A program made the position numbers and the translations under genes. Of a stretch of 64,000 nt of DNA, positions 8,268-42,879 are shown in pieces; position 1 is the first letter of the stretch, and the number at the start of each line of letters is the position of its first letter. Source of the stretch: Patescibacteria group bacterium (GTDB lineage: Bacteria; Patescibacteriota; Patescibacteriia; Buchananbacterales; UBA6539); NCBI GenBank assembly GCA_028688055.1, contig JAQTYZ010000002.1:68256-132255 (forward strand), written 5' to 3'. The notes under the pieces were generated by a model, which worked only from the letters and a program-made list of their open reading frames with translations, was not told the origin of the DNA and did no database searches.

Positions 8268-8332
8268 AATTAAAAAAAGTTGAGTTTTTGTCATCCCGAG
8301 CTTGTCGAGGGATCGCTCAACTTTTTTTAATT
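8268..8332. terminator. Bidirectional intrinsic terminator. The hairpin loop carries a TGTCATCCCGAGC...GGGATC repeat module
   Basis: AAAAAAGTTGAG ... CTCAACTTTTTTT inverted repeat between two convergent genes. Confidence 0.6.
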
Positions 8333-10548
8333 TAATCAACTCTAATAAGTTGTTTGAAAAATTCGCCGCCGTTTAGATAAATGACTTTATTATTTTTGTC
8401 TAGTAACCTCAATCTAAACTTAAGAATGTAACTTCCTTTTTTGATGCGCCTTGGGTTTAGGGTAAATTTGAATTCGGCATTATCACCTGGCTTAATTGTC
8501 GCTTTATTTAGTGGCACCCCGACCACGTTTGGTCGAACCCAGTCGTTGGCGTCATAAAAAATACTAGTTGAGCCATCGTCATTATAAAGTTCTAACGCTG
8601 TTCGGCGTGATAGCCAACTCGTTGTTTGGCTATTATTTTTTACTTTCATCGTTATTTGAACTGGCTTCCAAGTATTTTTTACAGCCAATGGCAGGTTGTG
8701 ACTTATTATTTCAGCGGAGTCACCGGTTTTAACGATAATAAATTTTCCCATTGTCGCCAGTTTAGTGGTGCTACCGTTATGGTTGGAATATAAATTGAAG
8801 TTTTGTGTTAATAAACCGTTTTGATCAATGGGGGCGGTGAGCTGGAAAGTGAAGCTGCCAGTTTGACCGGCTTGGACTGAGGCTTGATCTAAAGTAATTT
8901 TATTCATTACGCCAAATGATGTTTGGTCATCGTTTTTATTACTAACTTGTACCCAAACCGTAGTTGGCGTCCAAGTTGTTTGACCAGTATTCTTAAATTT
9001 TACTGAGACCATGGCGGCTTGGCCAGTAATTAGCTGAATACTGTCGGGGGTAATTGATTCAAATTCGCCCGCGACGCTTCCGGCTGGTGTGATAGCTGGA
9101 TCTTTAATGGTGCTATCGACGTAGTCGATGATTTCACCGGCGGGATGAAGATTGAGCAAATCAGTCGAGATAGTCAGGGCTGAGGCTTGTTTGTCCGGCC
9201 CAAAGGTTCGATTAAAAATGCCCGGGTCATCGATTCTCATGCGCTGGCCGTCAGAAATTAAATAATATTTTCCGCCGCTCAAAACAAAAGTACCATCGTC
9301 GAACAAGATCGGCGTTGAGGTTGGGTATTGGTTAAGTTGATCTGAGGTGGTCGGTTCCGGTGTGGCAGCAGCAAATTTATTTTTCCAAACGACGGGATCG
9401 ACCAAGTGTTTTAGGCCATCCTGAACTTGCCAAATGGTGCCAGTTTCATCTTTAAATAATTGACCTTGCGGATAAATTGAACTAGCCGAAATCCAGGGCC
9501 CTAAAGTGTAACCGGATAAATCAGCCTCCGGAACGAATGGCAAGTCGACATTGGTGATGGCGATTGAATAGTTTTTTAGTAAAGCTAAGGCGTTATTATC
9601 AATCACCGGACGTTTTGTCAGGCCAACTAATAAATACATTTGACCTGTTGCATCAGATTTGACTAAAGTATTGTCAGCATATTTAATTGTTGGTCCATCC
9701 GGATAGGCATTCAATTGTTGAGTCGAGGCCACGATTGCCTCATTGGCGGTATGATTTTTTAAATAGAATGTTTCCGAAGTAAATTTTCTTTTTTGGTTAT
9801 CGGCAATCAGCCAGTAGTCGTTGCCATTTCTAACAACTTGACCATCCAGAAAATTTTGGCCGGTAAAGTAGCGATTCCAAATCCGCCAAAAAAGTTTATT
9901 GGCACCATAATTGACATTAATGCCAAGCTCCGGCGCCTTACCGACATGGGGCGTATAGATATAGAGGTTGGCTGTCGCCTTGTTAGCCGGTGTCACCGGA
10001 TAACCATCATAAGTCATCGTGGTCTGCCCGACCTTAAAAGAAAATTGTCCGGCGCGATCCCAGTAAATTTGTTGGGTTTCCGCTGTTGCTTGAACTTGAT
10101 TATAAAAACCTTGATATTTGTCTTTGCAGCCGCCATTAAAACAACTGTAGCCAGTGGCCCAGTCGAGCGCTTTTTCGGTAGCCGAACTTTTTTGGACTAA
10201 CCCTTGTTCTTTTTCGAGCGTGGTTAATAAAAATTCGGGATTGATATTCGTGGCTTGGCCAACATTCCAAATTATCTCTGATGCTTTTTGGGCTACGCCG
10301 TTGATGATTTGGCTATAACGCGCTAAGACGCTATTTTCTCTTTCCAGGAAAACTTGAATGGCGGTTTTTGAGAGCGCATCTTTATTGGTTAAGTCAGCAT
10401 CGGTAATAATATTATTTGGATCAAAGGTTCTGGCCTGGGCCATGGTTGGTAAAATAACAAAAAGAGCTAAGGCACTAATTCTTAGCTTGAATGGTAACTT
10501 AGAAATTTTTTTTGTTTTATTTTTTTTGTAACTTCGGCGAAAAAACAT
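8332..10548 (-). CDS. Large secreted hypothetical protein (738 aa)
   Basis: Signal peptide ISALALFVILPTMAQA. No recognisable catalytic motif. Beta-rich repetitive C-terminal half. Confidence 0.5.
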   Translation of the reverse strand: MFFRRSYKKNKTKKISKLPFKLRISALALFVILPTMAQARTFDPNNIITDADLTNKDALSKTAIQVFLERENSVLARYSQIINGVAQKASEIIWNVGQATNINPEFLLTTLEKEQGLVQKSSATEKALDWATGYSCFNGGCKDKYQGFYNQVQATAETQQIYWDRAGQFSFKVGQTTMTYDGYPVTPANKATANLYIYTPHVGKAPELGINVNYGANKLFWRIWNRYFTGQNFLDGQVVRNGNDYWLIADNQKRKFTSETFYLKNHTANEAIVASTQQLNAYPDGPTIKYADNTLVKSDATGQMYLLVGLTKRPVIDNNALALLKNYSIAITNVDLPFVPEADLSGYTLGPWISASSIYPQGQLFKDETGTIWQVQDGLKHLVDPVVWKNKFAAATPEPTTSDQLNQYPTSTPILFDDGTFVLSGGKYYLISDGQRMRIDDPGIFNRTFGPDKQASALTISTDLLNLHPAGEIIDYVDSTIKDPAITPAGSVAGEFESITPDSIQLITGQAAMVSVKFKNTGQTTWTPTTVWVQVSNKNDDQTSFGVMNKITLDQASVQAGQTGSFTFQLTAPIDQNGLLTQNFNLYSNHNGSTTKLATMGKFIIVKTGDSAEIISHNLPLAVKNTWKPVQITMKVKNNSQTTSWLSRRTALELYNDDGSTSIFYDANDWVRPNVVGVPLNKATIKPGDNAEFKFTLNPRRIKKGSYILKFRLRLLDKNNKVIYLNGGEFFKQLIRVD

Positions 10549-10674
10549 AGCGTTGCTAGTGTTGGTATTTTATCATTTTTTTAGTGGTTTGTAAATATTT
10601 GGCAGTTGTCTCGCTTTGTGGTATATTATAAGCAGTTTTATTAAATAAAAATCATCAAGAAAGGGGGTGAGAAT

Positions 10675-11034
10675 ATGAAAAAAGGATTAATTATTGCTTC
10701 AATGGTTTTTCTATTCGCGCTATCCGTTATGCCGGCCTTAGCTTTGGATGTTGGTTTAAATTACGGCACTTACACTGGTTTAGGAACAAAGGACTTGCGT
10801 GAAGGTATAATGGCAATTGTTAACGTCTTGATGGGCTTTTTGGGTATTATCGCCATCATTATCATTTTGTACGGCGGTTTCACTTGGATGACTGCCGGTG
10901 GTAATGAAGAAAAGGTCAGTCAGGCCAAAAAGATTATCACTGCCGGCATCGTCGGTTTGGTAATCATCTTCATTTCATTTGCTATCGCCAGCTTCGTCAT
11001 TACGCAGTTAATTTCCGCCACTGGCGCTGTTTAA
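10675..11034 (+). CDS. TrbC/VirB2-like pilin-family protein (distant ninth paralog, near-identical to 2473-2832)
   Basis: YGGFTWMTAGGNEEKVSQAKKII. Same AAGGGGGTGAGAAT leader. An extended -10 (TGGTATATT) lies near 10619-10627. Confidence 0.6.
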   Translation: MKKGLIIASMVFLFALSVMPALALDVGLNYGTYTGLGTKDLREGIMAIVNVLMGFLGIIAIIIILYGGFTWMTAGGNEEKVSQAKKIITAGIVGLVIIFISFAIASFVITQLISATGAV

Positions 11035-11076
11035 ACAATAAAATTACTTAAGGCTTTTCCGTTTGGTAAATTATTT

Positions 11077-11748
11077 ATGCCATCAATCAACGACTGGGGG
11101 TCGGTTGCGACCTCTTCCCTAAATGAAATTTGGTTTCGCTTTGTCGATTTGGTCCCTAACCTGATTGGCGCCGCGTTAGTTTTGATTGTTGGTATTTTTT
11201 TGGCGCAGGCCGTTGGTCGCGTCATTGCCAAACTGATTCATAAAATTTATGTCGATCGCGCTGCCGAAACTACTGGTCTAACCACTTTTTTGCAGCGCCT
11301 TGGATTTAAACTTGAAATCAGTAGAGCCTTAGGTCTTCTGGTTACCTGGTTTTTGTATATCATTATTTTAGTCGCCACCGCTGAAATTTTGGGTCTTGAT
11401 CAGATTTCTCAATTTTTGGGTTCGGTGGTCCTCTATATCCCAAACGTCCTGATTGCCGTGGTTATTTTGCTCGTTGGCATTATCGTTTCTAATTTTGTTC
11501 ACACGTTAGTTAAAGAAATGTCGATTGCCGCTAATTTAGATTTTGCCGATTCGTTAGCTAATGTTGCCAAATGGGCGTTGTTAATTTTTACCTTTATGGC
11601 CGCCCTAATTCAGCTTCGGGTGGCCACGGAGTTAATTCAGATTTTATTTACCGGTTTGGTGTTAATGGTTTCCTTGGCCGGTGGTATTGCTTTTGGGCTT
11701 GGTGGTAAAGATCAGGCTAAAGAATTTTTAGATAAATTGATTAAGTAG
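11077..11748 (+). CDS. Membrane protein with TM_helix repeats (mechanosensitive-channel-related N-terminal repeat family)
   Basis: Three repeats of the type LVPNLIGAALVLIVGIFLAQAVGRVIAKLI. Confidence 0.5.
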   Translation: MPSINDWGSVATSSLNEIWFRFVDLVPNLIGAALVLIVGIFLAQAVGRVIAKLIHKIYVDRAAETTGLTTFLQRLGFKLEISRALGLLVTWFLYIIILVATAEILGLDQISQFLGSVVLYIPNVLIAVVILLVGIIVSNFVHTLVKEMSIAANLDFADSLANVAKWALLIFTFMAALIQLRVATELIQILFTGLVLMVSLAGGIAFGLGGKDQAKEFLDKLIK

Positions 11749-11765
11749 TAGGTTTTAATAAAAAA

Positions 11766-11793
11766 ATAACCCCCGACGTGCGGGGGTTTTATC
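11766..11793. terminator. Intrinsic terminator
   Basis: CCCCCGACGTGCGGGGG followed by TTTTAT. Confidence 0.65.
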
Positions 11794-11801
11794 ATTGCCA
11801 A

Positions 11802-12470
11802 TTATTTTATTTCAGCTAAGCCGTAAATGGCAAAGGGTTTTTGTCGTTCAAGTGCCCAGATTTGATTGCCATAATCGAAATGCCACCATTCATATTGGTC
11901 AAATCGAAAACCGCCGGTCACCATCGCTTCGCGCAGCAATTTTCGGTTAGCTCTGATTTTTTGGTCAAGTTCAGGATGATTTTCATAATATAAGGCCGCG
12001 TCTTCATCGCTAAAATGATCAAACTCACCACCCATATTAAGTTCCTGGCCATCTTGATCGACCAAGGTCAGATCGACCGCGCCGCCGGTTAAATGGAGTG
12101 GTATTTTTTTAGGGTTATAAGGGTCGGAGACAAAAGTTAAAGTTCGGTCTTTAAGTTGTTCGTCGTTCCAAGTTGGGTTAAGTTTTTTCAGTTTGTCGTG
12201 AAGTGTATCATAGAGAATTTTTTGCGTTTTGTAGTCGCGCCAACCGTCCCAAATTTTAATTTTATGGTCCCCGAGACTTTTTTGAACTTCTAAAAGTTTT
12301 TTGGCTGCTGACTCACGTAAGTACATTGCTGTTCGATCAGCGATATTATTTTTGAAGTACATCGGTTCGAGTACAAAACCATAAGCTTTGAGATTAACCA
12401 GCGGTTCGCCGCACTCTTTAATAATAATATGTTCGTAATCTCTAATCATAGGATAGCTATAATCAGCCAA
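11802..12470 (-). CDS. D-alanyl-D-alanine dipeptidase (VanX/DdpX, peptidase M15D)
   Basis: Length and motifs (...SDPYNP...HLTGGAVDLTLV...EWWHFDYG) typical of the VanX family. Confidence 0.65.
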   Translation of the reverse strand: MADYSYPMIRDYEHIIIKECGEPLVNLKAYGFVLEPMYFKNNIADRTAMYLRESAAKKLLEVQKSLGDHKIKIWDGWRDYKTQKILYDTLHDKLKKLNPTWNDEQLKDRTLTFVSDPYNPKKIPLHLTGGAVDLTLVDQDGQELNMGGEFDHFSDEDAALYYENHPELDQKIRANRKLLREAMVTGGFRFDQYEWWHFDYGNQIWALERQKPFAIYGLAEIK

Positions 12471-13723
12471 AATAAAATTGCTAAGTCATTTTTAAAATAG
12501 GGGACATCAATTAAGCCATGAATTATAATTGTGATCATCGCCGCCATGATTCCTAACGTCAACCACTTGTCTGTTTTTATTTTTACTATCCCTGACTTGA
12601 AAAACTGGACCATTAGTAGCGCCATACCGGTTAGTCCAATCAAGCCGATTTCGACCCAGAAATTTAGAATAATATTGTGCGGGTACAGTAAGGGTTCTAA
12701 TTTTAGCGGGTCACGCCATTGATTTTGGATTTTAGCAAAGCCCAAGATGCCCGCGCCAGCAACAAAGTTAGTCGGGCTGGCGGTTAAATAATTATTGGCC
12801 ATTTGCCAAAGTTCTAAACGGTTTTGGCTTGAGCTGCTTTTGACGACTCCGGACAGCAGCGACGGTTGCAACGAAATTGCTAACAGGCCAATGATAAATA
12901 TTATTAGCACTGCCGCAACAGTTTTTTTCTGGCTGACGCCAAAAAATAACATGAAAATAAGAGCCGCTGTTAATCCCAACCACGTCCCTTCGGACCAGGT
13001 AAAAAATATTGCCACTAAGCTGATTAATATTAGGGAAGCTTTAAGGACGGTTGGCCAGATTTTTTTTATTTCGCTTAGCAACCAACCAAAGTAAATGGCA
13101 ACAATGGGTGCCAAATAAAGTCCCACGGCATTGGGCGATGAGAATATTGAAGTAACCCGTCGGTGCGCCATCGCGGTCCAGGCTGGCTCATAAATACCAA
13201 AGCCAGTAAATTTTTGGTCAATGGCCAATAAGGCGATTGGTAAAGCCGAAATACCCAGTGACCATAAAATAATTTTTTGGTTTTTCTTTCCTGGCCAGAT
13301 ATTATATAGCAGCACAAAAAACATAATTGGCTCGATGAAATAAGCTTTCCATAAACCGGCCGCTTCGATTTTATTAGGTGCAATAATCATCCCAATCGTC
13401 GCGCCGACTAAAATTAAAATAATCGCCGCTCGATAAGGATACTGCCCGCCTCGCTTTATTTTATGTTTTATTAAATTGGCAATCGTGAAGCTTACAAAAA
13501 CCACCCAGATTAGAAGTTCTAAAAAAGTGATTGGCAAAAATGCCAAACGTGAGCGAAATAAATAAGTTGGCAAGCAGATAATAATTAAGCTTACCGCCCA
13601 AGCTGGTTTTTTGCTGGCCAGATAGCCGGCCAGCACGACGATAATAAGCAAGCCGATGTTAATCGGCCACCAGAACTGATTTAAGACGTGCGCAATTTGC
13701 CAATTGAAATCAAACCAAAACAT
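12446..13723 (-). CDS. Polytopic membrane protein, O-antigen ligase/polymerase-like
   Basis: About 10-12 predicted transmembrane segments. Glycoconjugate context (flippase and HD protein adjacent). Confidence 0.4.
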   Translation of the reverse strand: MFWFDFNWQIAHVLNQFWWPINIGLLIIVVLAGYLASKKPAWAVSLIIICLPTYLFRSRLAFLPITFLELLIWVVFVSFTIANLIKHKIKRGGQYPYRAAIILILVGATIGMIIAPNKIEAAGLWKAYFIEPIMFFVLLYNIWPGKKNQKIILWSLGISALPIALLAIDQKFTGFGIYEPAWTAMAHRRVTSIFSSPNAVGLYLAPIVAIYFGWLLSEIKKIWPTVLKASLILISLVAIFFTWSEGTWLGLTAALIFMLFFGVSQKKTVAAVLIIFIIGLLAISLQPSLLSGVVKSSSSQNRLELWQMANNYLTASPTNFVAGAGILGFAKIQNQWRDPLKLEPLLYPHNIILNFWVEIGLIGLTGMALLMVQFFKSGIVKIKTDKWLTLGIMAAMITIIIHGLIDVPYFKNDLAILFWLIIAIL

Positions 13724-13724
13724 A

Positions 13725-14723
13725 TTAATTCAAAATCTTTATATAAAATCCTTTTTTAACTTTGGCCGCCCAGGCGGCAACTCTTTGGTAGTAGACCGGG
13801 TCGACTTTTGACAGCCGGATTAATTTGCCATCCTGCAAAAAGTAGGGGTCAACGACCCGAGTTTTTGAAGTGCCCCAGAAGTCAGCCGCTGTTTTTTTGG
13901 ATACGATTTTAATTTTTAAATTTTTGATTTGTTGCAATTTTTTGGTAATGATTGGATTTTTAGTGTGGCCTAACTTTTTTAGAATGTATTCATCGGTAGT
14001 ATAAAGTTCTTTTTTGGTAATAATTTTTTTTGTCAGCGCTTCACGGAGGACCTGGGCTGAGATGGTATAAATGGCAATTTGGAGCGGTTTGCACCAGTTA
14101 TTTCGGTTATGCTTTTCATAAAGTCGAGCGAATGCTTGGGCGCCGCTCCGGCTTTTAAATACAAACTGCTGCTGATAAACGGTCAGGTCTTTTAAGATTT
14201 TTTTGGGATCAGCGGTATCAAATACTTTAGCCCAAGGATCGGATAACGTGTAATCAATGCGATCAGCACACAGATCCGGTAAATCGCGTTCGGCTAATGG
14301 AAAGGTGCTCGTGCTTAGAATTTTAGTATGGTTAAAGCCATACTTTTTTAAAATTGCGTTGACCCCCTGAAGTTGAAAGGCTTTTCCTAGTCGATCGTCT
14401 TGATAGCTGTGTTTACTGGTGTCCTTATTAAATAAAAAATCGGCAACGTGAGAAAATACCGTGTGTGATATGTCGTGGAGCAACCCATGGAGCTGTTCTT
14501 CAATGCTAGCATTAAACTTTCGCAACAATAACATAACGCCGATTGAGTGGTCATAACGACTAAAGTGATGACTTTTTTTCCAGCTTTGGTGCAACTGCCA
14601 AGTGCCGTGCTGTTCGATTTTTTTTAGTCGTTGGAGCGCTGGCGATTTAATTAAATCAATCAGTACTGGCTCCTTAATTGTAACGTGCCCATAAAGTGGG
14701 CTATTAATTTTTATGGCTTTCAT
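13725..14723 (-). CDS. HD-domain phosphohydrolase
   Basis: HSIGVMLL...LLHDISHTVFSH motif. Confidence 0.6.
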   Translation of the reverse strand: MKAIKINSPLYGHVTIKEPVLIDLIKSPALQRLKKIEQHGTWQLHQSWKKSHHFSRYDHSIGVMLLLRKFNASIEEQLHGLLHDISHTVFSHVADFLFNKDTSKHSYQDDRLGKAFQLQGVNAILKKYGFNHTKILSTSTFPLAERDLPDLCADRIDYTLSDPWAKVFDTADPKKILKDLTVYQQQFVFKSRSGAQAFARLYEKHNRNNWCKPLQIAIYTISAQVLREALTKKIITKKELYTTDEYILKKLGHTKNPIITKKLQQIKNLKIKIVSKKTAADFWGTSKTRVVDPYFLQDGKLIRLSKVDPVYYQRVAAWAAKVKKGFYIKILN

Positions 14724-16138
14724 TTTATTGAAATAATTTCGGCCACTAATTTTTTATTGATGGCCCCAAGTAAAACCAACATTAAGCCATACACTGCCGC
14801 GCCGATAACAATGGAAGCCGCTAGGTTGATTGTTGGAAAATAGGCTAGAGTGCCGCCCATTACCGCTGCCGCGACAATAATTTTGGCCACCAAATTAATT
14901 TTTGGCAAAAAACTTATTTTTTTATATAAAACATAACTGGCGGTCACTAAAATAAAGCCTTCGGTAAAAACCGTCATCCAAGCCGCCCCCCAATATGAGT
15001 AGCGGGGGATAAAGATCAAGTAGCCGATAATTGAAACAACGGCATTAATAAAATAAAATTTAATCATTTGTTTCTGGGCGTTGAGGGCCACGACGGCATA
15101 GCCAAACAGGCTGGCAATAAAAATAGTTGCTGTCGCAATCAAGAGGATTTTAATAATATCACCCGAGATGATAAAATCGGCGCCAGCGATTAAGGCCATT
15201 AATGGCCGACCCAAAAAATAGCCGCCGACGACCATCGGTATTGCTAGCATCATTAAAAAGTCAAACGCTGATTGAATGGTTGTTTTTAGTTTATTAAAAT
15301 CTTTAATGGCCACCGCGGTTGCCAGAATTGGCAGGATTAAACCCAAGAAGATATAGACGGTATTAATGAGGACGTCTAAAACCCGATAGGGAGCGCCGTA
15401 CAAACCAACTTCCGCTTGGGTTCGCGTCAGTGACATGATAATAATATCACCTTTGAAATAAATTAGGTTTAGGGCAATGGTTAAGGCAATTGGCCAAGTT
15501 TGGCTGAGGATTTTTTTCCAGACGGTTTGGTTTATTTCAAATTTTAATTTAATTTTTTTATCAGCAAAATATAATAAAATGGCCAACGTCAGTAAACTGT
15601 CTAAAGTAATGGCGGCAATCACGGCGATTAGGCCTAAGTTGAAATAAATCGCTAACAAAATACCAGCTAAATAAATAATTTTGGCCACCACCTCGGCGAT
15701 GGCCAGCTTGTGCATGATTAAATGTTTTTGGAAATAGCTGGTTAAAGTTGAAACCAGCGAACTAAAAACAAAACCAATGGCGGCAACAATTGTGCCGGCT
15801 TTAATAATCGTTGGGTAAGGAAAAAAAATAATTACCAGCGGCGCAATGCCTAAAAAAATCAACGACGCCACTAGTCGCAGCGATAGGGCATTGCTAAGGA
15901 TTTCACTTTCGTTTTCGTTTGGGTCAGAAATTAATTGGGTGGTGGTCATCTGTAATCCGAGGTCAACTAAAATTCCGAAGACGGCCAGGAAGCCGTAAAT
16001 CGTCGTGTAATAACCAAAACCTTCTTGACCTAAATATCTCGTCATCGCTCCAAAACCGATTAAGGCCATCGCCACGGTAATGGTTTTGCCAAGTAGTTGG
16101 ATGATGGTGTTGTGCGCAATTTTTTTAATTTCCGTCAT
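14720..16138 (-). CDS. Polysaccharide/oligosaccharide flippase (MOP/Wzx-type)
   Basis: 472 aa with about 12-14 transmembrane segments. Wzx-like N-terminus MTEIKKIAHNTIIQLLGKTITVAMALIGFG. Confidence 0.6.
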   Translation of the reverse strand: MTEIKKIAHNTIIQLLGKTITVAMALIGFGAMTRYLGQEGFGYYTTIYGFLAVFGILVDLGLQMTTTQLISDPNENESEILSNALSLRLVASLIFLGIAPLVIIFFPYPTIIKAGTIVAAIGFVFSSLVSTLTSYFQKHLIMHKLAIAEVVAKIIYLAGILLAIYFNLGLIAVIAAITLDSLLTLAILLYFADKKIKLKFEINQTVWKKILSQTWPIALTIALNLIYFKGDIIIMSLTRTQAEVGLYGAPYRVLDVLINTVYIFLGLILPILATAVAIKDFNKLKTTIQSAFDFLMMLAIPMVVGGYFLGRPLMALIAGADFIISGDIIKILLIATATIFIASLFGYAVVALNAQKQMIKFYFINAVVSIIGYLIFIPRYSYWGAAWMTVFTEGFILVTASYVLYKKISFLPKINLVAKIIVAAAVMGGTLAYFPTINLAASIVIGAAVYGLMLVLLGAINKKLVAEIISIK

Positions 16139-16170
16139 ACATCAGGAATGATAACATTTATTAAGCTTGG

Positions 16171-16199
16171 TTGACAAAAAGTTTTTGTTGTGCTATACT
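16171..16199 (+). promoter_or_regulatory. Sigma70-type promoter (TTGACA-17-TATACT). It is one copy of a duplicated 38-nt promoter module
   Basis: TTGACAAAAAGTTTTTGTTGTGCTATACT. An identical copy sits at 19877-19905 and a truncated copy at 63991-64000. Confidence 0.7.
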
Positions 16200-16395
16200 A
16201 TATTTAGTGAGGGCTTAGTTGCGCTCTTCTTTATTATCTCAAATTACCTCCAAGAGGTTTTTAATTTCTTAATAATTAAAAGAATACGTATGACTCTAAG
16301 GTCATTCGATTCTAGTATCACAAAGCGGCGGCTGTGGTTAGTCATTACCGTAAAGTTGGGTATTAATCCCAACTCTTTTTAGTTATTGAAATTGT

Positions 16396-19875: not shown

Positions 19876-19876
19876 G

Positions 19877-19905
19877 TTGACAAAAAGTTTTTGTTGTGCT
19901 ATACT
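19877..19905 (+). promoter_or_regulatory. Sigma70-type promoter, duplicate of the module at 16171
   Basis: Identical TTGACAAAAAGTTTTTGTTGTGCTATACT. Confidence 0.7.
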
Positions 19906-19980
19906 GTATTTATAAGAGGTCGCAAGACTCTCTTTTTGTAACCCAAGCGGTTGCCACTCAAAAACCAAAATAAAAATTAT

Positions 19981-22471: not shown

Positions 22472-22933
22472 ATGTCAACAAAAAAATTTCCAATTTACTT
22501 GGTGGTTCAAAATGTTCGCAGTCTCTATAATGTCGGTTCAATTTTTCGTTGCGCCGATGTCTTTGGCGTTGATAAAATTTTTTTGTGCGGCTATACCGGT
22601 TTTCCGCCGCGGAAAGAAATTTCCAAAACTGCACTGGGGGCTGAGACTTGGATTCCTTGGGAACGGCAGTGGCAAACTCATCTCGTGGTTAAAAAGTTAA
22701 AGACTGCAGGCTTTAAAATTATCGCCCTCGAAACCGGGGAGCATAATGTTAGTTTGCCAAAATTCAAGCCCGCTGGACCAATTGCTTTGGTCGTTGGTAG
22801 TGAAGTCAATGGCATCAGTCGTTCAATTTTAGCGCTGGCTGACAAAAAAGTTGTTATTCCAATGCTGGGCAAAAAAGAATCGTTAAATGTGGCGGTGGCT
22901 ACCGGCATTGCTTTGTACGCGCTGCGTAATTAA
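22472..22933 (+). CDS. SpoU/TrmH-family RNA 2'-O-methyltransferase
   Basis: SPOUT motifs LVVGSEVNGIS...IPMLGKKESLNVAVATGIALYAL. Confidence 0.7.
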   Translation: MSTKKFPIYLVVQNVRSLYNVGSIFRCADVFGVDKIFLCGYTGFPPRKEISKTALGAETWIPWERQWQTHLVVKKLKTAGFKIIALETGEHNVSLPKFKPAGPIALVVGSEVNGISRSILALADKKVVIPMLGKKESLNVAVATGIALYALRN

Positions 22934-25606: not shown

Positions 25607-25706
25607 TGTCATTGCGAGCGAATGAGGTGAGCGAAGCAATCTTAGGGTTGTCGTAAATTTAAGGGATTGCTTCGTCTCCGCCAGCTGGCGGATCCTCGCA
25701 ATGACA
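25607..25706. repeat. MITE/REP-like palindromic element (about 100 bp) with terminal inverted repeat TGTCATTGCGAG / CTCGCAATGACA
   Basis: Nested inverted repeats (CGAAGCAATC / GATTGCTTCG). Its left half recurs at 31665-31700. Confidence 0.6.
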
Positions 25707-27643: not shown

Positions 27644-27700
27644 TTGTCATCCTGAACTGGTTTCAGGATCTTGAGATTCCGGACCAAGCCCGGAATGACA
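27644..27700. repeat. Palindromic repeat element: TTGTCAT, hairpin ATCCTGAA..TTCAGGAT, hairpin ATTCCGG..CCGGAAT, ATGACA
   Basis: Terminal inverted repeat TGTCAT/ATGACA enclosing two hairpin modules. Confidence 0.6.
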
Positions 27701-27710: not shown

Positions 27711-27791
27711 TTGTCATCCTGAACTAGTTTCAGGATCTCTGGAGATGCCAAACCCACCGCCACGGCGGGGCAAGCAAGTTCGGCATGACAC
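27711..27791. repeat. Palindromic repeat element of the same family, with a CCGCCACGGCGG module in reverse orientation
   Basis: TTGTCATCCTGAACTAGTTTCAGGATC...CCACCGCCACGGCGGGGCAAGCAAGTTCGGCATGACAC. Its reverse complement matches 34889-34984. Confidence 0.6.
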
Positions 27792-28940: not shown

Positions 28941-29028
28941 GTGTCATCCTGAACTCGTTTGCTCCGCTCTGGTAGCGGTTTCAGGATCTTATTATTTTTA
29001 CTAGCTGCCGAAATAAAATCGGCATGAC
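28941..29028. repeat. Palindromic repeat element in the divergent promoter region between the guaB-like gene and guaA
   Basis: GTGTCATCCTGAAC...TTTCAGGATC ... GCCGAAATAAAATCGGCATGAC. Confidence 0.55.
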
Positions 29029-30889: not shown

Positions 30890-30901
30890 GACGTTGTCAC
30901 A

Positions 30902-31510: not shown

Positions 31511-31700
31511 GATTGCCGCGTCGGTCGCCTATGGCTCCCTCCTCGCAATGACAATAAATGAGCTGCATCCTAGTGTTATAGCACGCGAACAAATTAATCA
31601 TTGCGTCATTGCGAGCAAAGCAAACTGCGTTGTGTCATTCCCGACAAATTACTTTACGTGTCATTGCGAGCGAACGAAGTGAGCGCGGCAATCTCTCGGT
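31511..31700. repeat. Cluster of fragments of the TGTCATTGCGAG / GTCATTCCCGAC repeat family
   Basis: Right half GATTGCCGCG...CCTCGCAATGACAA. Left halves GTCATTGCGAGCAAAGC, GTCATTCCCGAC and GTCATTGCGAGCGAACGAAGTGAGCGCGGCAATC. Confidence 0.55.
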
Positions 31701-32325: not shown

Positions 32326-32356
32326 AACCGCGGGTAGTTACCGCGGCTTTTTATTT
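32326..32356. terminator. Bidirectional intrinsic terminator
   Basis: AAAAACCGCGGGTAGTTACCGCGGCTTTTTATTTTTT. Confidence 0.65.
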
Positions 32357-32613
32357 TTTGGTTGCCGGCATTTTATTGATCGGCCGTTCTAATTTCGGCG
32401 GCGCGAACTTCGTTAATTTTTTGAAACTCAACAAATGGTTTTTCAAACGCCTGTTTAATGTAGTAAAAAGATATCGCGGTGGCCGCGATAACGATGGCGA
32501 GTTGAAACCAACCGGTTTTCATTGTGTGGTTTACAAGCATACACGTAGTATAATAAAAAATTATTTTTTCGGCAACAAAATAAAAGTGGCAGCTATGTCA
32601 TCTAGCGCCACTA

Positions 32614-32973
32614 TTAAACGAGCCATTCATTCGGAACTTGCGCCGCTTTACCACAATGTGGGCATTGATAGGTATCGCCGTTGCCGTCAATAATCGAAAT
32701 AAAACAGTGATGGCAAACCGGTCCGTGGCAGTGCGGACAAAAAGTCTTGACGTTGATGGTCTTTAGACAATTCGCGCAAACCTGACATTCTCGCAGGCAA
32801 AAGTGTTCGCCGCACGACGGGCAAAGGCCAGTTGAGCCATCGCTTTCAAGGTCGACTCTAAAGCAGTGTCCGCAGAGTATTTTCCGGCACTGGTTGCAGC
32901 AAAATCGATTGCCGTTGTCTGACTGACAGTTCGGACAAGGCTGTGTTACCGTCAGGCTTAAATGAACTAACAT
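32614..32973 (-). CDS. Cys-rich multi-zinc-ribbon protein
   Basis: At least eight CxxC pairs (CPNC, CNQC, CPSC, CQVC, CPHC...). GC-rich. The overlapping plus-strand ORF 32358-32693 was rejected. Confidence 0.45.
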   Translation of the reverse strand: MLVHLSLTVTQPCPNCQSDNGNRFCCNQCRKILCGHCFRVDLESDGSTGLCPSCGEHFCLRECQVCANCLKTINVKTFCPHCHGPVCHHCFISIIDGNGDTYQCPHCGKAAQVPNEWLV

Positions 32974-33027
32974 ACCGCCCTCCTTTCAGCTGTCCTAAAA
33001 ATATATTTTTATTTTTGGCTTGTCAAA

Positions 33028-34878: not shown

Positions 34879-34888
34879 AATTTTATTG

Positions 34889-34984
34889 TTGTCATTCCGG
34901 ACTTGTTTGCCCCGCCGTGGCGGTGGATCCGGAATCTCGTTAACTGCTCCCCAGCCGAGATCCTGAATCAAGTTCAGGATGACA
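34889..34984. repeat. Palindromic repeat element (96 bp). TTGTCATTCCGGAC..CCGCCGTGGCGG..TCCGGAATC..ATCCTGAATCAAGTTCAGGATGACA
   Basis: Near-identical to 36486-36581. Immediately upstream of the LTD gene start. Its read-through makes the spurious N-terminal extension MIQDLGWG...PPPRRGKQVR. Confidence 0.65.
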
Positions 34985-35516
34985 TTATTAAGTTAGTTAA
35001 ATTTTTTATAATAAAAGCGCACTAATCGTGCGCTATATTGATTTTGTCTGTCTTAATTTTTTGTCAGTCTGAACCGGTATTTGTCACCCTGAGCCGGTCG
35101 AAGGGTAAAGAGAAAACCCCGAAAGAATCGGAGTTTTCGCGCTATATTGAGCCTAAGCTCAGTTCCAACATATGATATTTTAGTAAATTTGTCAAAAAAA
35201 AGCCCGGTCGAATTTCTACTGGGGCGTGTTTTGCGTCAAAGACAGTTTATAGACAAGATTACACCGACGCGGATCCAAGGCGAAATTGGCAACAATGGTT
35301 GCCGGTGCGGTTTTGCGCGGACCAAGATCCGGCGGTTGGCTGAAAATACTGTCAACGAGTTGTCTAAGGTTCATAATGTTTGTCTTCCCTTCGTTCAGCT
35401 GTTTAGGGGACTGTCAAAAACAGCTAAAATATAATATGTTAACAAAATTGTGTCAAATTTTTAGGAGGTTATTTTCGCCTTGATTAATGGTATAATTTTT
35501 GATAGATTAATGTTTT

Positions 35517-36554
35517 ATGAAAAATAATTTCTGGCAAAAATTAAAGAAGCCGATTATGGTTTTAGCGCCGATGGCCGATGTCACCGATGCGGCTTTTCGT
35601 CGGATCATTGCTAAGTATGGCAAACCGGATGTAGTTTACACGCAATTTGTTTCTTGCGACGGCTTATGTTCCGCCGGTAAGAAAAAACTTTTGGTTGATT
35701 TAAAATTTACCGCCCAGGAACGGCCGATTGTCGCGCAATTTTTTGGGGCTAAGCCGGCCAATTTTTATCAGTGCGCGAAGCTGGCTGTTGCGCTTGGTTT
35801 TGACGGTATTGATATTAATATGGGTTGTCCGGATAAAGCCGTGTGTAAACAAGGCGCCGGCGCGGCCTTAATTAAAAATCCAAAGTTGGCGCGTGAGATA
35901 ATTCGTGAAACCAAGCGCGGAGCGGGGGAGTTGCCCGTCTCCATTAAAACCAGAAGCGGCGATACTAAAGATTCGCTTGCAACTTGGCTGCCCGAACTTT
36001 TAGCCGAAACACCGGCGGTCGTTATTATTCACGCCCGCACGCGCAAAGAAATGTCCAAAGTTTCAGCCAACTGGGATTTAATCAAACAAGCCGTTGTTAT
36101 TAGAAATAAAATGAAAAGCAAAACTTTGATCATTGGTAACGGTGATGTTGTTGGCTTGGATGATGCCAAAAAGAAAGTTAGCGAAACTGGCTGCGATGGC
36201 ATTATGTTTGGCCGGGCGATTTTCGGCAACCCATGGTTATTTAATAAAAAAATAAAACCCGCCGATATTACTATTGAAAAAAAACTTAAAGTAATGGTTG
36301 AGCATACCAAGCTATTTGAAAAATTACTGATGCATCCCGCCGGAGGCGGGTCCGCCTCCGGCGGAAAGAATTTTGCAATGATGAAAAAGCACTACAAAGC
36401 TTATGTTAATGGTTTCGACGGGGCGAAAGAATTACGGATGGAATTAATGGAATGTGACAACGCTCAAGAGGTTGAAAAAATAGTATTGTCATTCCGGACT
36501 CGCTTGCCCCGCCGTGGCGGTGGATCCGGAATCTCAAGAGGCTCTGTCTCCTAG
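35517..36554 (+). CDS. tRNA-dihydrouridine synthase (Dus). The last roughly 20 codons are encoded by a repeat element
   Basis: VLAPMADVTDAAFRRI...DGIDINMGCPDKAV...ALIKNPKL. C-terminal ...SFRTRLPRRGGGSGISRGSVS comes from the element at 36486-36581. Confidence 0.75.
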   Translation: MKNNFWQKLKKPIMVLAPMADVTDAAFRRIIAKYGKPDVVYTQFVSCDGLCSAGKKKLLVDLKFTAQERPIVAQFFGAKPANFYQCAKLAVALGFDGIDINMGCPDKAVCKQGAGAALIKNPKLAREIIRETKRGAGELPVSIKTRSGDTKDSLATWLPELLAETPAVVIIHARTRKEMSKVSANWDLIKQAVVIRNKMKSKTLIIGNGDVVGLDDAKKKVSETGCDGIMFGRAIFGNPWLFNKKIKPADITIEKKLKVMVEHTKLFEKLLMHPAGGGSASGGKNFAMMKKHYKAYVNGFDGAKELRMELMECDNAQEVEKIVLSFRTRLPRRGGGSGISRGSVS

Positions 36555-36581
36555 TGATCCTGAATCAAGTTCAGGATGACA
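36486..36581. repeat. Palindromic repeat element (96 bp), a copy of 34889-34984, overlapping the 3' end of the Dus gene
   Basis: Sequence match. Terminal inverted repeat TTGTCAT/ATGACA. Confidence 0.65.
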
Positions 36582-36606
36582 TTATTAAATTAGCTAAATC
36601 TTTTTT

Positions 36607-36660
36607 TTGTCATTCCGGGCTTGATCCGGAATCTAGATCCTCACTTTTGCTGGAATGGCA
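36607..36660. repeat. Short palindromic repeat element (GTCATTCCGGGCTTGATCCGGAATC module)
   Basis: TTGTCATTCCGGGCTTGATCCGGAATCTAGA... Confidence 0.5.
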
Positions 36661-36753
36661 AATCAGTTAGGAAAAATTGTCAGTCGATTTCTAAAAATTT
36701 GCAGGTAAGTCGGTTGACAACCAAGATAAAATTAGCAATTATAAGTATGAACT

Positions 36754-36999
36754 GCAGGCGTGGTGGAATCTGCCTGTCGGCAGGCAGGTTGGTATATTTA
36801 TCTCGCACAAATGATGGGCAAGTGGTGGAATTGGTATACACGCTAGCCTTAGGAGCTAGTGCCGCAAGGCTTGAGAGTTCGAGTCTCTCCTTGCCCACCA
36901 TTTGTGCGAGACACGCATATCTTACTTGCCCACCTTTGGCGGGGGAGCATGTTTCCGAGTTCGAGTCTCTCCGCCTGCACCATAATCAACTAAATATAA
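36754..36999 (+). pseudogene. Outer pseudo-tRNA(Leu-like) whose 5' part (36754-36826) and 3' part (36912-36999) flank the functional tRNA-Leu(TAG)
   Basis: Acceptor strands GCAGGCG ... CGCCTGCACCA are perfectly complementary. The 3' part carries a duplicated T-arm (GAGTTCGAGTCTCTC). The 5' part has GTGGAAT, then the hairpin CTGCCTGTCGGCAGGCAG, then GGTATAT. The T-stem and anticodon arm are degenerate. Confidence 0.35.
36827..36911 (+). tRNA. tRNA-Leu(TAG)
   Basis: GGGCAAGTGGTGGAATTGGTATACACGCTAGCCTTAGGAGCTAG + TGCCGCAAGGCT variable arm + GAGAGTTCGAGTCTCTC + CTTGCCCACCA. Flanked by the perfect 11-bp inverted repeat TCTCGCACAAA / TTTGTGCGAGA. Confidence 0.8.
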
Positions 37000-37004
37000 A
37001 TAGT

Positions 37005-37577
37005 ATGGATAATATCACCTTAGTCGGTTCACGATTACCGGAAATGATATTAGACGTTTATCAGCAGGATGAAATTAAGAAAATGGAGTTGTCAGACTAT
37101 CGCAAACAATGGCTAGTCTTATTTTTTTATCCGGCCGATTTTACTTTTGTTTGTCCGACTGAGTTAAGAGAGTTGGCCGAAAATTATGCTAAGTTTAAGG
37201 AGATCAATACTGAAATTATGAGCGTTAGTACCGATACGGTTTTTACGCACAAGGCTTGGCATGACCACTCTGAGGCGATAAAAAAAATTGAATTTCCCAT
37301 GGGTTCAGATCCGACCGGCAAACTTTCTAAAGCGCTTGGTGTTTATCTTGAGAACGAAGGTCTGGCGTTGCGCGGAACTTTTATTGTGAATCCGGAGGGG
37401 GAGATTAAGGCGATGGAAATCAACGACAACAGTATTGGCCGTTCCGTTGATGAACTCTTGCGCAAGTTGCAGGCGGCGCAGTTTGTCGCCGAGCATGGCG
37501 ATCAGGTTTGTCCTGCCAGCTGGCATCCCGGCGATGCCACCCTAAAACCGGGTTTGGATTTGGTTGGAAAAATTTAG
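37005..37577 (+). CDS. Peroxiredoxin (typical 2-Cys Prx, AhpC/TSA family)
   Basis: FFYPADFTFVCPTEL (peroxidatic Cys) and VCPASW (resolving Cys). Start moved to the ATG at 37005 (MDNITLVG). The upstream in-frame ORF spans tRNA DNA. Confidence 0.8.
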   Translation: MDNITLVGSRLPEMILDVYQQDEIKKMELSDYRKQWLVLFFYPADFTFVCPTELRELAENYAKFKEINTEIMSVSTDTVFTHKAWHDHSEAIKKIEFPMGSDPTGKLSKALGVYLENEGLALRGTFIVNPEGEIKAMEINDNSIGRSVDELLRKLQAAQFVAEHGDQVCPASWHPGDATLKPGLDLVGKI

Positions 37578-37655
37578 GTCCGGTGTCGTCTCGAGTTAAC
37601 CTAGACCCTGAAATAAATTCAGCACCAGATTCAGGATGACAGCAAATGATAATTG

Positions 37656-37709
37656 TGTCATTCCGGCCTACGAGCCGGAATCTAGATTCCCGCTTTCGCG
37701 GGAATGACA
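37656..37709. repeat. Palindromic repeat element: GTCATTCCGG..CCGGAATCTAGATTCCCGC..GCGGGAATGACA. A half element lies at 37600-37641
   Basis: Two hairpin modules between TGTCAT and ATGACA. Confidence 0.55.
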
Positions 37710-37723
37710 AAATAAATAAACAT

Positions 37724-38017
37724 ATGTCCAACCAAAAATTATCACCTCAACAACAAGAAGAAAAAAAGGATTTGAAAATTGAGATTTTGGAAAAAGTTAT
37801 TGATTTGTCCACTGCCGGTTTTGGTTTGGTGGCGGCCTTGGCTTGGAATGATGCTATCAAGGCGATGTTTGCCAAATTCTTCCCGCAACCCGAGAATAAT
37901 CTGTTAGCGATGGTTATTTATGCACTGTTTATCACCAGTTTAGTCGTTTTGATCACCGTTCAGCTGGGTCGAGCTGTAAATTTAGCCAAAAAAAGTCTCA
38001 TCAAAAAGCAAAAATAG
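37724..38017 (+). CDS. Small membrane protein, hypothetical (about 97 aa, N-terminal Glu/Lys-rich region then two transmembrane segments)
   Basis: ATG at 37724 gives MSNQKLSPQQQEEKK.... The ORF-track N-terminus from 37646 is repeat-derived. Confidence 0.45.
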   Translation: MSNQKLSPQQQEEKKDLKIEILEKVIDLSTAGFGLVAALAWNDAIKAMFAKFFPQPENNLLAMVIYALFITSLVVLITVQLGRAVNLAKKSLIKKQK

Positions 38018-38042
38018 GCTCAACTTGGTCACTTGACAACAG

Positions 38043-38071
38043 TTTTAACTTGAGCTATAATGATACAGTTA
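38043..38071 (+). promoter_or_regulatory. Consensus sigma70 promoter (TTGACA-17-TATAAT), probably the rRNA promoter P1
   Basis: TTGACAACAGTTTTAACTTGAGCTATAAT about 440 nt upstream of the 23S 5' end. Confidence 0.7.
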
Positions 38072-38077
38072 ACTAGA

Positions 38078-38212
38078 GATACATCTAGCAATAACGCCAA
38101 ATATAAAAGAAGATATGATATTAAGTGTTCTAATTCATAAATTCCCAAGCGCATAACTGCCTCAATATTTTGGTTGAAATGCTAGCCGCTTGGGACCAAG
38201 CGGCTTTTTTAG
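38078..38212 (+). ncRNA. Candidate roughly 135-nt small RNA or leader ending at an intrinsic terminator, between the rRNA promoter and the 23S
   Basis: Perfect promoter followed by the hairpin AGCCGCTTGGGACCAAGCGGCT + TTTTTT at 38186-38212. Confidence 0.3.
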
Positions 38213-38511
38213 TCCCTTCCAATCTAAACCACGCTAAATTTATTCCAGTATCTATTTCATCTGTTGCTTGAAAGCAATAAGTAAGCACATTTGATGCTTA
38301 ACGGCACTTGAGTGGACACTGAACATGGATTCTGAAATAAGTTTAGAAAATCAGTTTACCGTTGAAGTGGTGGATCATTAACAATTCAACAACGCGCATT
38401 TAAATATCTCCAGTATTTAAATGCAAATGTATCAAGCATCTTAAATTAGAAAGTACACCTAGAAGAATAGAAATGACTGACAAGTTATAAATCTTGTCTC
38501 TCAATTCTTGT

Positions 38512-41586
<3,075 letters not shown>

Positions 41587-41697
41587 AACTGGGGAAAATA
41601 GCTAATGGCATTTGGCAAATCGCTAATAGCCAATTAGTAATACTCTGAATTAAAATCATTAGAACCTGGATGCCTGGCATTTGGTCGGGCATCTCGT

Positions 41698-41802
41698 TTT
41701 GGTGGTTTTAGCGGTAGGGTCACACCTGTTCCCATCCCGAACACAGCAGTTAAGCCTACCAGCGCCGATGATACTCTTTAGGGGAAAGTAGGTCGCCGCC
41801 AA
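41698..41802 (+). rRNA. rrf: 5S ribosomal RNA
   Basis: TTGGTGG...GTCACACCTGTTCCCATCCCGAACACAGCAGTTAAGC...AGCGCCGATG...AGTAGGTCGCCGCCAA. Confidence 0.8.
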
Positions 41803-41812
41803 TTTATCATCA

Positions 41813-41842
41813 AGTCCCGCCTGATCGCGGGACTTTTTGTTT
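41813..41842 (+). terminator. Intrinsic terminator of the rRNA unit
   Basis: AGTCCCGCCTGATCGCGGGACTTTTTGTTT. Confidence 0.7.
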
Positions 41843-41867
41843 ATCATTTTTTTGTTATACTGTTGGT

Positions 41868-42602
41868 ATGAATATTATTGTTGCCAAAAATTACGATGAT
41901 TTATCCGCCCATGCCGCGGCCATCGTTGCTGACCAAATTATTAAAAAACCAAACTCGGTTTTAGGGTTGGCTACTGGCGCGACGCAGCTTGGGTTATATC
42001 AAAAGCTCGTTGAACTTTATCACCAGGGGAGTCTTAGCTTTAGTCAGGTAACAACTTTTAATTTGGATGAGTATTTTGGGCTAGCTAATGATGATTCACA
42101 AAGTTATCATTATTTTATGTTTGAAAATTTTTTTAAACACCTTGATATAAAAAAAGAAAATATTTTTATTCCGGCTGGTTCAATTTCAATGACCGAAGTT
42201 GGACCGTATGGTCAAAAATATGAAGCGGCCATTAAGATTAAGGGTGATCTTGATTTACAAATTTTAGGTATTGGTGAAAATGGTCACATCGGTTTTAATG
42301 AACCGGGTTCTGATTTTAATTCAGTGACTCGTTTGGTTAGTTTGAGTGATAACACTATTAAGGCTAATGCTCGCTTTTTCTCTGCCCCCGAAGCAGTTCC
42401 CCGACAAGCCATCACGATGGGTTTGGCAACTATTATGTCAGCCAGAAAAATTATATTGTTAGCTTCGGGTAAAAGTAAAGCCGCGGCCGTCGCCCAGGCT
42501 TTAAGCGGGGAGGTCAGTGAGGCAGTCCCGGCTTCCGTTTTGCAGCGACACCAAAATCTTACTATTATTTTAGACACCGAGGCAGCGGTAATGGTTAAAT
42601 AA
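41868..42602 (+). CDS. nagB: Glucosamine-6-phosphate deaminase
   Basis: LGLATGAT...FNLDEY...ILGIGENGHIGFNEPGS. Confidence 0.75.
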   Translation: MNIIVAKNYDDLSAHAAAIVADQIIKKPNSVLGLATGATQLGLYQKLVELYHQGSLSFSQVTTFNLDEYFGLANDDSQSYHYFMFENFFKHLDIKKENIFIPAGSISMTEVGPYGQKYEAAIKIKGDLDLQILGIGENGHIGFNEPGSDFNSVTRLVSLSDNTIKANARFFSAPEAVPRQAITMGLATIMSARKIILLASGKSKAAAVAQALSGEVSEAVPASVLQRHQNLTIILDTEAAVMVK

Positions 42603-42753
42603 TTTAAAGGTTAAAATTAAGCCGCCAGTGAGCGGTTTTTAGATTTGACTAATTTTAGCTAATAAACTAAGATATTTTATTAATTTAATGAAGTGTGAAA
42701 GATATTGACTTATTAATATGTATGATATAGTATGATAATATGACAACTTTAGT

Positions 42754-42879
42754 TGTCATCCCGAGCTTATTTGCATACCTAATAGTATGCAAATTAGTAG
42801 GCAGACTCGTCAATTAGATAATAATTTAAGAGATTCTGAAACCGCCGCCAGAGCGGGGTAAATAAATTCAGAATGACAA
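42754..42879. repeat. Largest copy (126 bp) of the TTGTCAT...ATGACAA palindromic element family
   Basis: TTGTCATCCCGAGC + hairpin ATTTGCATACC..GGTATGCAAAT + hairpin ATTCTGAA..TTCAGAAT + ATGACAA. Preceded by a facing half-site ATGACAAC. Confidence 0.6.

Follow-up and report, generated by a model that had tools for sequence, protein, structure and literature searches.

Tagged hairpin units of the CGTC/TGTC repeat superfamily, of the type that brackets Ssn nuclease genes, in a chromosomal segment of a Patescibacteria genome

Repetitive extragenic palindromic (REP) repeats with a CGTC tag were brought together as a superfamily by Di Nocera et al. in 2013, with families CGTC-1 to CGTC-4 including dRS3 of Neisseria and RPE-4 and RPE-6 of Rickettsia (PMC3733652). 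TGTC replaces CGTC as the tag in many of these repeats, and CCTC is a further variant; the stems, 8-9 bp long, start with A-T, loops measure 4-5 nt and a 3-nt tail (consensus CCA) follows, and the units occur mainly as tags-outward 'HH' dimers, often heterodimers, with no associated transposase (PMC3733652). More recently, Chenal et al. (2025, Nat Commun 16:2388) defined a 28-nt hairpin, the NTS (CGTCATTCCCGCGMAVGCGGGAATCYRG), a broader set of Ssn-related motifs (SRM) and the Ssn family (cd10448) of site-specific single-stranded DNA nucleases, together with the NTS-ssnA-NTS architecture (PMC11893778). Here we analyze the intergenic palindromic repeats of a 64,000-nt chromosomal piece (contig JAQTYZ010000002.1; hereafter the window) of a metagenome-assembled genome (MAG) from the Patescibacteria, or candidate phyla radiation (CPR), and of a 10-kb extension leftward (L252), 74 kb in total, and show that the repeats carry the defining features of this already described kind of element (2013, 2025); very probably they belong to the CGTC/TGTC-tagged REP superfamily, in one family with the NTS/SRM hairpins.

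The repeating entity in the window is a single hairpin unit of 27-49 nt and not an element of 50-126 bp. A unit is laid out as TGTC, AT, six variable bases, a loop, six complementary bases, AT, and C plus two further bases, and all robust units share the TGTC tag, a stem starting with AT and a C directly 3' of the stem, the degenerate unit at 35082 being the only one that lacks the C 3' of its palindrome. The 3-nt tail has the window consensus CTC/CTA/CTT. Two classes can be told apart: class I units have stems of 7-8 bp and loops that are short (4-7 nt) or long (26 nt, in one unit 32 nt), the long ones carrying a nested GC hairpin of the CCGCC-GTG-GCGG type, and class II units have a 5-bp stem (ATTGC/GCAAT, ATCCC/GGGAT or ACCCT/AGGGT) around an 11-27-nt loop with GAG at its start and CGA or CGAA at its end. 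At least six different stem sequences are present, with perfect complementarity kept in all, and ATCCTGAA is the commonest. Folded as single-stranded DNA, a unit leaves its tag and tail unpaired on either side of an 8-bp stem. The short 8-bp-stem units, the long-loop unit 42830-42878 and the paired elements reach fold z-scores of -3 to -7; the long-loop unit 34890-34938, both ATTGC-type single units and the stretch 8278-8326 fold no better than shuffles (z of +0.4 to -1.9). Degenerate or fragmentary units are found at 35061-35110, 36633-36660, 28999-29026 and 42754-42800 and in the middle of 31511-31700.

A relaxed scan yields about 23 units in the window, some 16 of them robust (Table 1). The sequence TGTC with a directly adjoining perfect 8-bp inverted repeat (loop 3-34 nt) is found 10 times on the two strands, against a mean of 0.13 (count 0 or 1) in 30 dinucleotide-preserving shuffles, and among all 256 tetranucleotide tags TGTC ranks second in this respect; only AAAA stands higher, itself the reverse side of ordinary terminators. 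The units are clustered, occupying 8 of the 14 intergenic regions at 25-43 kb and 1 of the 30 elsewhere (Fisher p = 1.3e-4), and adjacent pairs have their tags outward in nine cases out of nine, for which random orientation gives a probability of about 4e-6. Rfam at gathering thresholds reports only rRNA and tRNA genes in the window and no RNA family over the repeats. The genuineness of a dispersed, REP-like palindromic family, proposed in a preliminary description of this DNA, is thus borne out by tagged hairpins well above shuffles, and all 12 of the stretches it listed contain the sequences described; its count of at least ten intergenic sites comes down to 9 intergenic regions (one at 8.3 kb, the others at 25.6-42.9 kb). 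What had been taken for a terminal inverted repeat, (T)TGTCAT/ATGACA(A), consists of the tags and first two stem bases of two distinct hairpin units in inverted orientation, which face away from each other and usually have different stems; the pattern TGTCAT-N(10-40)-ATGACA has no match in the window because the pairs exceed that length. The modular, shuffled organization that had seemed unusual is likewise the ordinary tags-outward HH heterodimer layout, described for the superfamily in 2013.

Comparison with the CGTC REPs reveals agreement in the unpaired tag including its TGTC variant, in AT at the first two stem positions and in the lack of a transposase (Pfam, about 60 window ORFs), and the short class I units, with stems of 7-8 bp and loops of 4-7 nt, stay near the norm of 8-bp stems and 4-5-nt loops. 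Shared, too, are the HH heterodimers (all nine window pairs are HH and most mix stems or loop lengths), occasional intragenic units, and spacers within the 20-100 bp given for most dimers (PMC3733652). About half of the window units nonetheless depart from the norm through long structured loops or 5-bp stems; the 3-nt tail is present but reads CTC/CTA/CTT rather than CCA, several stem classes coexist within 17 kb, and the phylum is not among the five listed in 2013 (PMC3733652). The window units resemble the NTS/SRM hairpins as well. All robust window units place an unpaired HGTC-type 5' tag before the palindrome and a C directly 3' of it. A stem starting AT, a short tail, an extragenic location and non-random clustering are also held in common, and in other genomes, CPR contigs included, ssn genes lie between units of this type. 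A single mismatch, T for C at position 1, separates unit 37683-37709 (-) from the published Neisseria NTS consensus. On the other hand, most window units have stems (ATCCTGAA, ATTCCGGA and others) or loops (26-nt loops with nested hairpins, or the 11-27-nt loop on a class II 5-bp stem) outside the published SRM search pattern HGTCWYN(0-2)YYVSBRHN(0-5)WNVSBRGN(0-2)RNCYNB, for which 29 genomes from 4 phyla had served as the basis; the present host, a Patescibacteria MAG, belongs to a group that the main text of the 2025 paper does not mention (PMC11893778); and a cognate ssn was not found in the 74 kb. The same pattern also misses stems that are found flanking ssn genes.

Units of this type prove to be widespread, and the genes they enclose identify their partner. 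Scans of GTDB (one genome per species) and of metagenomes return same-type units in abundance, all counts being lower bounds among the matches listed. With a generic unit pattern, the 120 seed GTDB loci among the matches listed (0.86 Mb) contain 291 tagged hairpins and come from Rickettsiales, Sphingomonas, Neisseria, Bacteroidota, Ignavibacteria, Dehalococcoidia, Actinomycetota, Nitrospirota, Omnitrophota and at least eight Patescibacteria MAGs. Clustering of the ORFs of these 120 loci yields, among the clusters examined, a single recurrent family lying directly between units, a small GIY-YIG protein (3 loci); the larger recurrent families checked by Pfam are ordinary ones such as ABC-transporter ATPases and histidine kinases. 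The protein is a stand-alone GIY-YIG domain of about 95-100 residues with units on both sides of its gene in Ignavibacteria, Bacteroidota and Neisseria contigs, so that the association of Ssn with hairpins, already published in 2025, was rediscovered here independently, via ORF clustering. YhbQ-like GIY-YIG proteins encoded on two further contigs (L149, L152) were rejected as Ssn, with a weak Ssn-profile score and no flanking units, and NCBIfam holds no model for the Ssn family.

The same arrangement exists within the CPR. Among the listed matches of a metagenome scan for ATCCTGAA, ssn genes bracketed by units with this stem appear in two contigs (L222, L242), and a third, 28%-GC contig (L186) carries ssn at 348-640 (-) with in-frame TGA at two conserved glycines. 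ORFs lengthen throughout that contig under genetic code 25, which together with the in-frame TGA codons points to a CPR organism of the Gracilibacteria/Absconditabacteria type. A search with the L186 protein recovers named Ssn homologs from Absconditicoccaceae, Roizmanbacteria, Paceibacterota and Taylorbacteria; aligned along its whole length, the Paceibacterota protein shares 51% identity with the Ssn of a Neisseria MAG. Tags-outward units enclose ssn in all four CPR contexts fetched from a protein; of the contigs with ssn flanked in this way, two are code-25 CPR contigs, one of them labeled Absconditicoccaceae. In the Paceibacterota cassette (L254) the gene stands between a long-loop ATTCCCGC unit that carries a nested hairpin and a short ATTCCCGC unit, a mixed long-plus-short layout that recurs in the window pairs 27712-27790, 34890-34984 and 36487-36581. 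The Taylorbacteria contigs (L256-L259) hold two ssn cassettes with ATTCCCGC stems and many ssn-less pairs, and in Roizmanbacteria (L260) and Absconditicoccaceae (L261) the flanking units belong to class II and, like the window's ATTGC type, combine a stem of 5 bp with a GAGC...CGA loop. Together, the ssn-flanking stems that match the window are ATCCTGAA (L222, L242, L186), ATTCTGAA (L186), ATTCCGGC (L053) and ATTCCCGC (L254, L256-L259), and with class II included, most window unit types are matched beside an ssn gene somewhere, often in the CPR.

Several features of the CPR loci deserve separate mention. In Absconditicoccaceae (L261, 4249-6288) ssn lies 208 nt downstream of a ComEC-type competence gene; in Paceibacterota (L254, 10001-19937) and Roizmanbacteria (L260, 5636-10309) it is no more than 6 kb from dprA and topA; and in Taylorbacteria (L256-L259, about 8000-12300) it sits inside a PrgI/TraC/TraG cluster resembling a type IV secretion system (T4SS). 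Such positions may link ssn to DNA uptake or may be due to chance. The second Taylorbacteria ssn cassette is intact in L257 (8502-8786) and split or pseudogenized in L256 (8765-9045), L258 and L259; unit positions are otherwise unchanged among these near-identical contigs.

How the characterized nucleases act is known from Neisseria and Wolbachia, where Ssn is a stand-alone GIY-YIG nuclease of about 95 residues that binds its hairpin only as single-stranded DNA and is inactive on double-stranded DNA, RNA and the reverse strand (PMC11893778). Binding depends critically on the 3' C, and cleavage, which takes place a few nucleotides upstream of the tag, on the three bases 5' of the stem (PMC11893778). 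In Neisseria, Ssn cuts up transforming DNA that enters the cell and reduces recombination at flanked genes, and in N. meningitidis it lowers transformation by NTS-bearing DNA (PMC11893778). In light of these data and of the cassettes described above, we consider the best explanation, with a probability of roughly 70%, to be that the hairpins of the window are cognate to Ssn and that their pairs represent a unit-ssn-unit cassette lacking ssn. The tags-outward pairs share the unit(+)-ssn-unit(-) architecture of that cassette minus the gene, and are therefore most simply regarded as non-autonomous derivatives or empty landing sites. By this mechanism a unit in single-stranded form would fold into a hairpin whose unpaired 5' GTC tag and 3' C set its direction, and an Ssn encoded elsewhere on the contig or in the genome would recognize and cut it as in Neisseria, with a tags-outward pair presenting one cleavable site per strand; the outcome may be limited recombination with incoming DNA, again as in Neisseria, or selfish spread. 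That a cognate Ssn is encoded in this genome and acts on the window units appears more probable than not.

A number of observations weigh against this explanation and should be set beside it. The 64-kb window contains no Ssn-like ORF (hmmsearch --max, E<=10, with a 120-sequence Ssn profile), and the leftward extension is devoid of both ssn and units. The published SRM pattern matches just one of the roughly 23 window units, 37683-37709 (-), with the match spanning 37682-37709, where 0.16 would be expected. The SsnA protein of N. meningitidis is sequence-specific as well as structure-specific (PMC11893778), so that with at least six stem classes in the window several nucleases, a tolerant one or decayed orphan lineages would be needed. 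Finally, ssn was missing from 19% of the SRM-rich genomes in the 2025 survey (PMC11893778). In the course of the partner search, a 95-residue ORF between repeat pairs (35147-35434) was considered as a decayed ssn and dismissed, having neither a Pfam match nor an Ssn-profile match.

A duplicated pair in the window bears on whether the units are still maintained. The copies 34890-34984 and 36487-36581 are about 96-100% identical within their units and in the 23 nt to the right of ATGACA, while the spacers of about 20 nt between the units are unrelated, which argues against a simple recent segmental duplication. That the units were retained while the spacer diverged suggests that the units themselves are under constraint or subject to gene conversion. 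The second copy also reaches into a gene, as the annotated dus reading frame includes its unit 36487-36535, and the left unit and spacer (36487-36554) encode the last 22 residues of the product (LSFRTRLPRRGGGSGISRGSVS) and the stop codon. Homologs, which lack this tail, end about 20 residues earlier, with some 94% of the query covered; since the tail stems from the unit and is missing in homologs, the repeat has remodeled the 3' end of the gene. Comparison with sister genomes found nearest Dus homologs that are only about 70% identical and a long relative contig (L253) without synteny.

Against this background the units could instead be orphans or relics, hairpins of the same family in a genome whose cognate Ssn was lost or never present, which either persist neutrally or have been co-opted as RNA or DNA hairpins for transcript 3'-end stabilization, termination or supercoiling, as proposed for classical REPs. 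We regard such a history as unlikely. In its favor, the 74 kb yielded no ssn, a number of units are fragmentary or degenerate, many lie just past stop codons or between convergent genes and one lies inside a terminator stem, and the 19% of SRM-rich genomes without ssn provide a precedent. It fits less well with ten perfect 8-bp stems and with the invariance, in robust units, of the tag and 3' C, the very positions that matter for Ssn, nor does it sit easily with the ongoing constraint or conversion indicated by the duplicated pair; moreover, the hairpins are not followed by a T-run, and their orientation is symmetric and not tied to the direction of transcription. Mobilization of REP or REPIN elements by an IS200-like HUH tyrosine transposase (RAYT) encoded elsewhere would account for the general likeness, namely tagged extragenic hairpins in inverted doublets with no local transposase, and GTAG REP/REPIN-RAYT systems resemble the present one further in a nuclease gene bracketed by its own repeats (REPtron-like) and in recognition presumed to occur on single-stranded DNA. 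They differ in the tag, which is TGTC and not GTAG in all window units, and in the fold and chemistry of the partner, GIY-YIG as opposed to HUH/Y1; no RAYT flanked by CGTC/TGTC units was found in any species of the 2013 survey (PMC3733652), no Y1_Tnp is present among the ~60 window ORFs (Pfam), and in the recurrent ORF clusters examined from about 1.5 Mb of unit-bearing loci listed, bracketed genes are all GIY-YIG and never HUH. A RAYT origin is accordingly very improbable. The earlier suggestion of a RAYT-like or other nicking system elsewhere in the genome thus loses its first half, given the TGTC tag and the GIY-YIG nature of the bracketed genes, and keeps its second as the best current reading.

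A likeness to classical miniature inverted-repeat transposable elements (MITEs), that is, internally deleted DDE-type insertion sequences with terminal inverted repeats that move by cut-and-paste, was also noted in the preliminary description, and lengths of 56-126 bp, ends that look inverted, and a small, non-coding, intergenic and multi-copy nature do recall them, as would a status as non-autonomous derivatives of a gene-carrying cassette. The supposed inverted repeat, however, amounts only to the 6-nt tag plus AT, its ends belong to two distinct hairpin units that usually differ in stem, no target-site duplication or direct repeat is visible at the boundaries, and lone single units occur (8289, 37600), so that the designation MITE-like no longer stands and this origin has the slightest chance of all. 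The accompanying statement that no transposase is associated holds: Pfam on the ~60 window ORFs found no Y1_Tnp/RAYT, IS110, DDE or GIY-YIG domain. An IS110-family (bridge RNA) recombinase or a phage integrase might, lastly, use the units for attachment or as targets, a role for them that is compatible with the Ssn explanation and has a precedent in dRS3, the core of the NTS and a documented phage recombinase target of a filamentous prophage in Neisseria (PMC11893778). NTS-type units (GTCATTCCCGC-N4-GCGGGAATC; ATTCCCGC stem) are indeed common in IMG/VR contigs, at least L262-L381 among the matches listed with up to 13 copies per contig. Such a recombinase or prophage is nevertheless absent from the window (Pfam, ~60 ORFs), the ATCCTGAA stem is absent from IMG/VR, and a target role would leave the origin of the units unexplained; we thus deem it highly unlikely as an account of the repeats. 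That the ATCCTGAA stem class is phage-borne was itself rejected, with no IMG/VR match and a generic pattern at chance level there; one Ssn homolog only was found in viral contigs (L382).

Table 1. Hairpin units and pairs in the window (coordinates of the window; each unit with its strand).
Coordinates (strand)	Arrangement	Stem or sequence	Structural remarks	Context
8289..8316 (+)	single class II unit	TGTC ATCCC gagcttgtcga GGGAT C	in loop of terminator-like stem AGTTGAG...CTCAAC-TTTTT	between convergent genes
25607-25643 (+), 25663-25706 (-)	tags-outward pair, two class II units	both ATTGC...GCAAT	nested CCGCCAGCTGGCGG hairpin in (-) unit; spacer 19 nt between unit coordinates, ~25 nt between stems; complete pair forms a single long hairpin, -27.3 kcal/mol, z -7	
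27645-27672 (+), 27673-27700 (-)	tags-outward class I pair	ATCCTGAA (+); ATTCCGG (-)		between convergent gene ends, 3' of ordinary terminator
27712-27739 (+), 27742-27790 (-)	tags-outward pair, short (+) and long-loop (-)	ATCCTGAA (+); ATGCC...GGCAT (-)	nested CCGCC-GTG-GCGG hairpin in (-) unit	
28942-28990 (+), 28999-29026 (-)	tags-outward pair, long-loop (+) and degenerate (-)	ATCCTGAA (+)	AGTC tag in (-) unit	between divergent IMPDH-like gene and guaA
31509-31553 (-), 31659-31695 (+)	class II cluster, tags inward		two decayed fragments between (31619-31658)	downstream of His_Phos gene, upstream of cheW
34890-34938 (+), 34957-34984 (-)	tags-outward pair, long-loop (+) and short (-)	ATTCCGGA (+); ATCCTGAA (-)	nested CCGCCGTGGCGG hairpin in (+) unit	upstream of LTD/PKD gene
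35063..35109 (+)	fragment, then degenerate class II unit (35082-35109)	fragment TGTCAGTCTGAAC...; unit TGTC ACCCT gagccggtcga AGGGT		
36487-36535 (+), 36554-36581 (-)	second copy of the 34890-34984 pair			
36608-36635 (+), 36633-36660 (-)	tags-outward pair, (-) degenerate	ATTCCGG (+)	TGCC tag in (-) unit	between dus and tRNA-Leu
37600..37641 (-)	unit with 17-nt loop	TGTC ATCCTGAA ... TTCAGGGT CTA	one T-G wobble in stem	downstream of AhpC-like gene
37656-37684 (+), 37683-37709 (-)	tags-outward pair	ATTCCGGC (+); (-) reads TGTCATTCCCGCGAAAGCGGGAATCTAG	tails overlapping	
42754 to ~42800 (+), 42830-42878 (-)	tags-outward pair, (+) degenerate or interrupted, (-) long-loop	TGTC ATCCCGAG... (+); ATTCTGAA (-)	nested hairpin in (-) unit	upstream of NTP_transferase gene

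The gene content of the window comprises 23S and 5S rRNA genes without an adjacent 16S, seven tRNA genes and housekeeping genes. The Dus protein encoded here is 100% identical to NCBI MDD2807301.1 of a 'Patescibacteria group bacterium', which is encoded on a 201-kb contig. The 23S rRNA match (38512-41804) spans 3072 nt against a 2925-position model and therefore probably carries insertions; the 5S gene follows it and no 16S precedes it, a DUF5654 gene and repeat units lying upstream in its place. Other repeats are present as well. A 37-nt promoter-like repeat (GTTGACA-N17-TATACT...) occurs three times (16170-16206, 19876-19912 and 22568-22604), with two copies 97% identical, and an unrelated second set, made up of intergenic direct repeats 29-66 nt long with 69-94% identity, at 52865-53991, 53314-53350, 56194-56690 and 57257-57293 surrounds short unannotated ORFs and a tRNA-Ala/Val/Leu cluster. 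Paralogs of T4SS_pilin (PF18895), about 135 residues each, form a long tandem array with at least eight members in the window (36-3526) and more in the leftward extension (977-6744 of L252), and one inverted copy lies at 10675-11034.

The Ssn explanation invites an extension that we hold to be doubtful, namely that in streamlined, DNA-scavenging Patescibacteria the pairing of Ssn and hairpin is tied to DNA uptake and the doublets are non-autonomous copies of a mobile cassette, with the multi-class 17-kb cluster around guaB/guaA and the 23S rRNA gene explained accordingly. If this were true, several specificities or one tolerant nuclease would mark a chromosomal island against recombination with incoming DNA; alternatively, small hairpins would be copied by an undescribed GIY-YIG-driven mechanism.

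The finding opens no new kind of system. Through it a Patescibacteria genome is assigned to the Ssn/SRM system, whose characterization dates only from 2025 and concerned mainly Pseudomonadati, and what it adds is the presence of Ssn and its hairpins across several CPR lineages, two unit classes and nested-loop forms outside the SRM pattern, and a setting of ssn in CPR contigs next to comEC, near dprA-topA or within a T4SS-like cluster. The published pattern misses most CPR-type units, owing to their different stems, long nested loops and 5-bp-stem class, and with one detected among some 23 here, pattern-based surveys would under-count the family in CPR-type genomes. Units can also lengthen or change a reading frame, the dus C-terminus being an example, which makes them relevant to MAG annotation. 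Furthermore, CPR genomes are a source of further pairs of Ssn and hairpin specificity, of the sort wanted by the authors of the 2025 study for single-stranded DNA tools.

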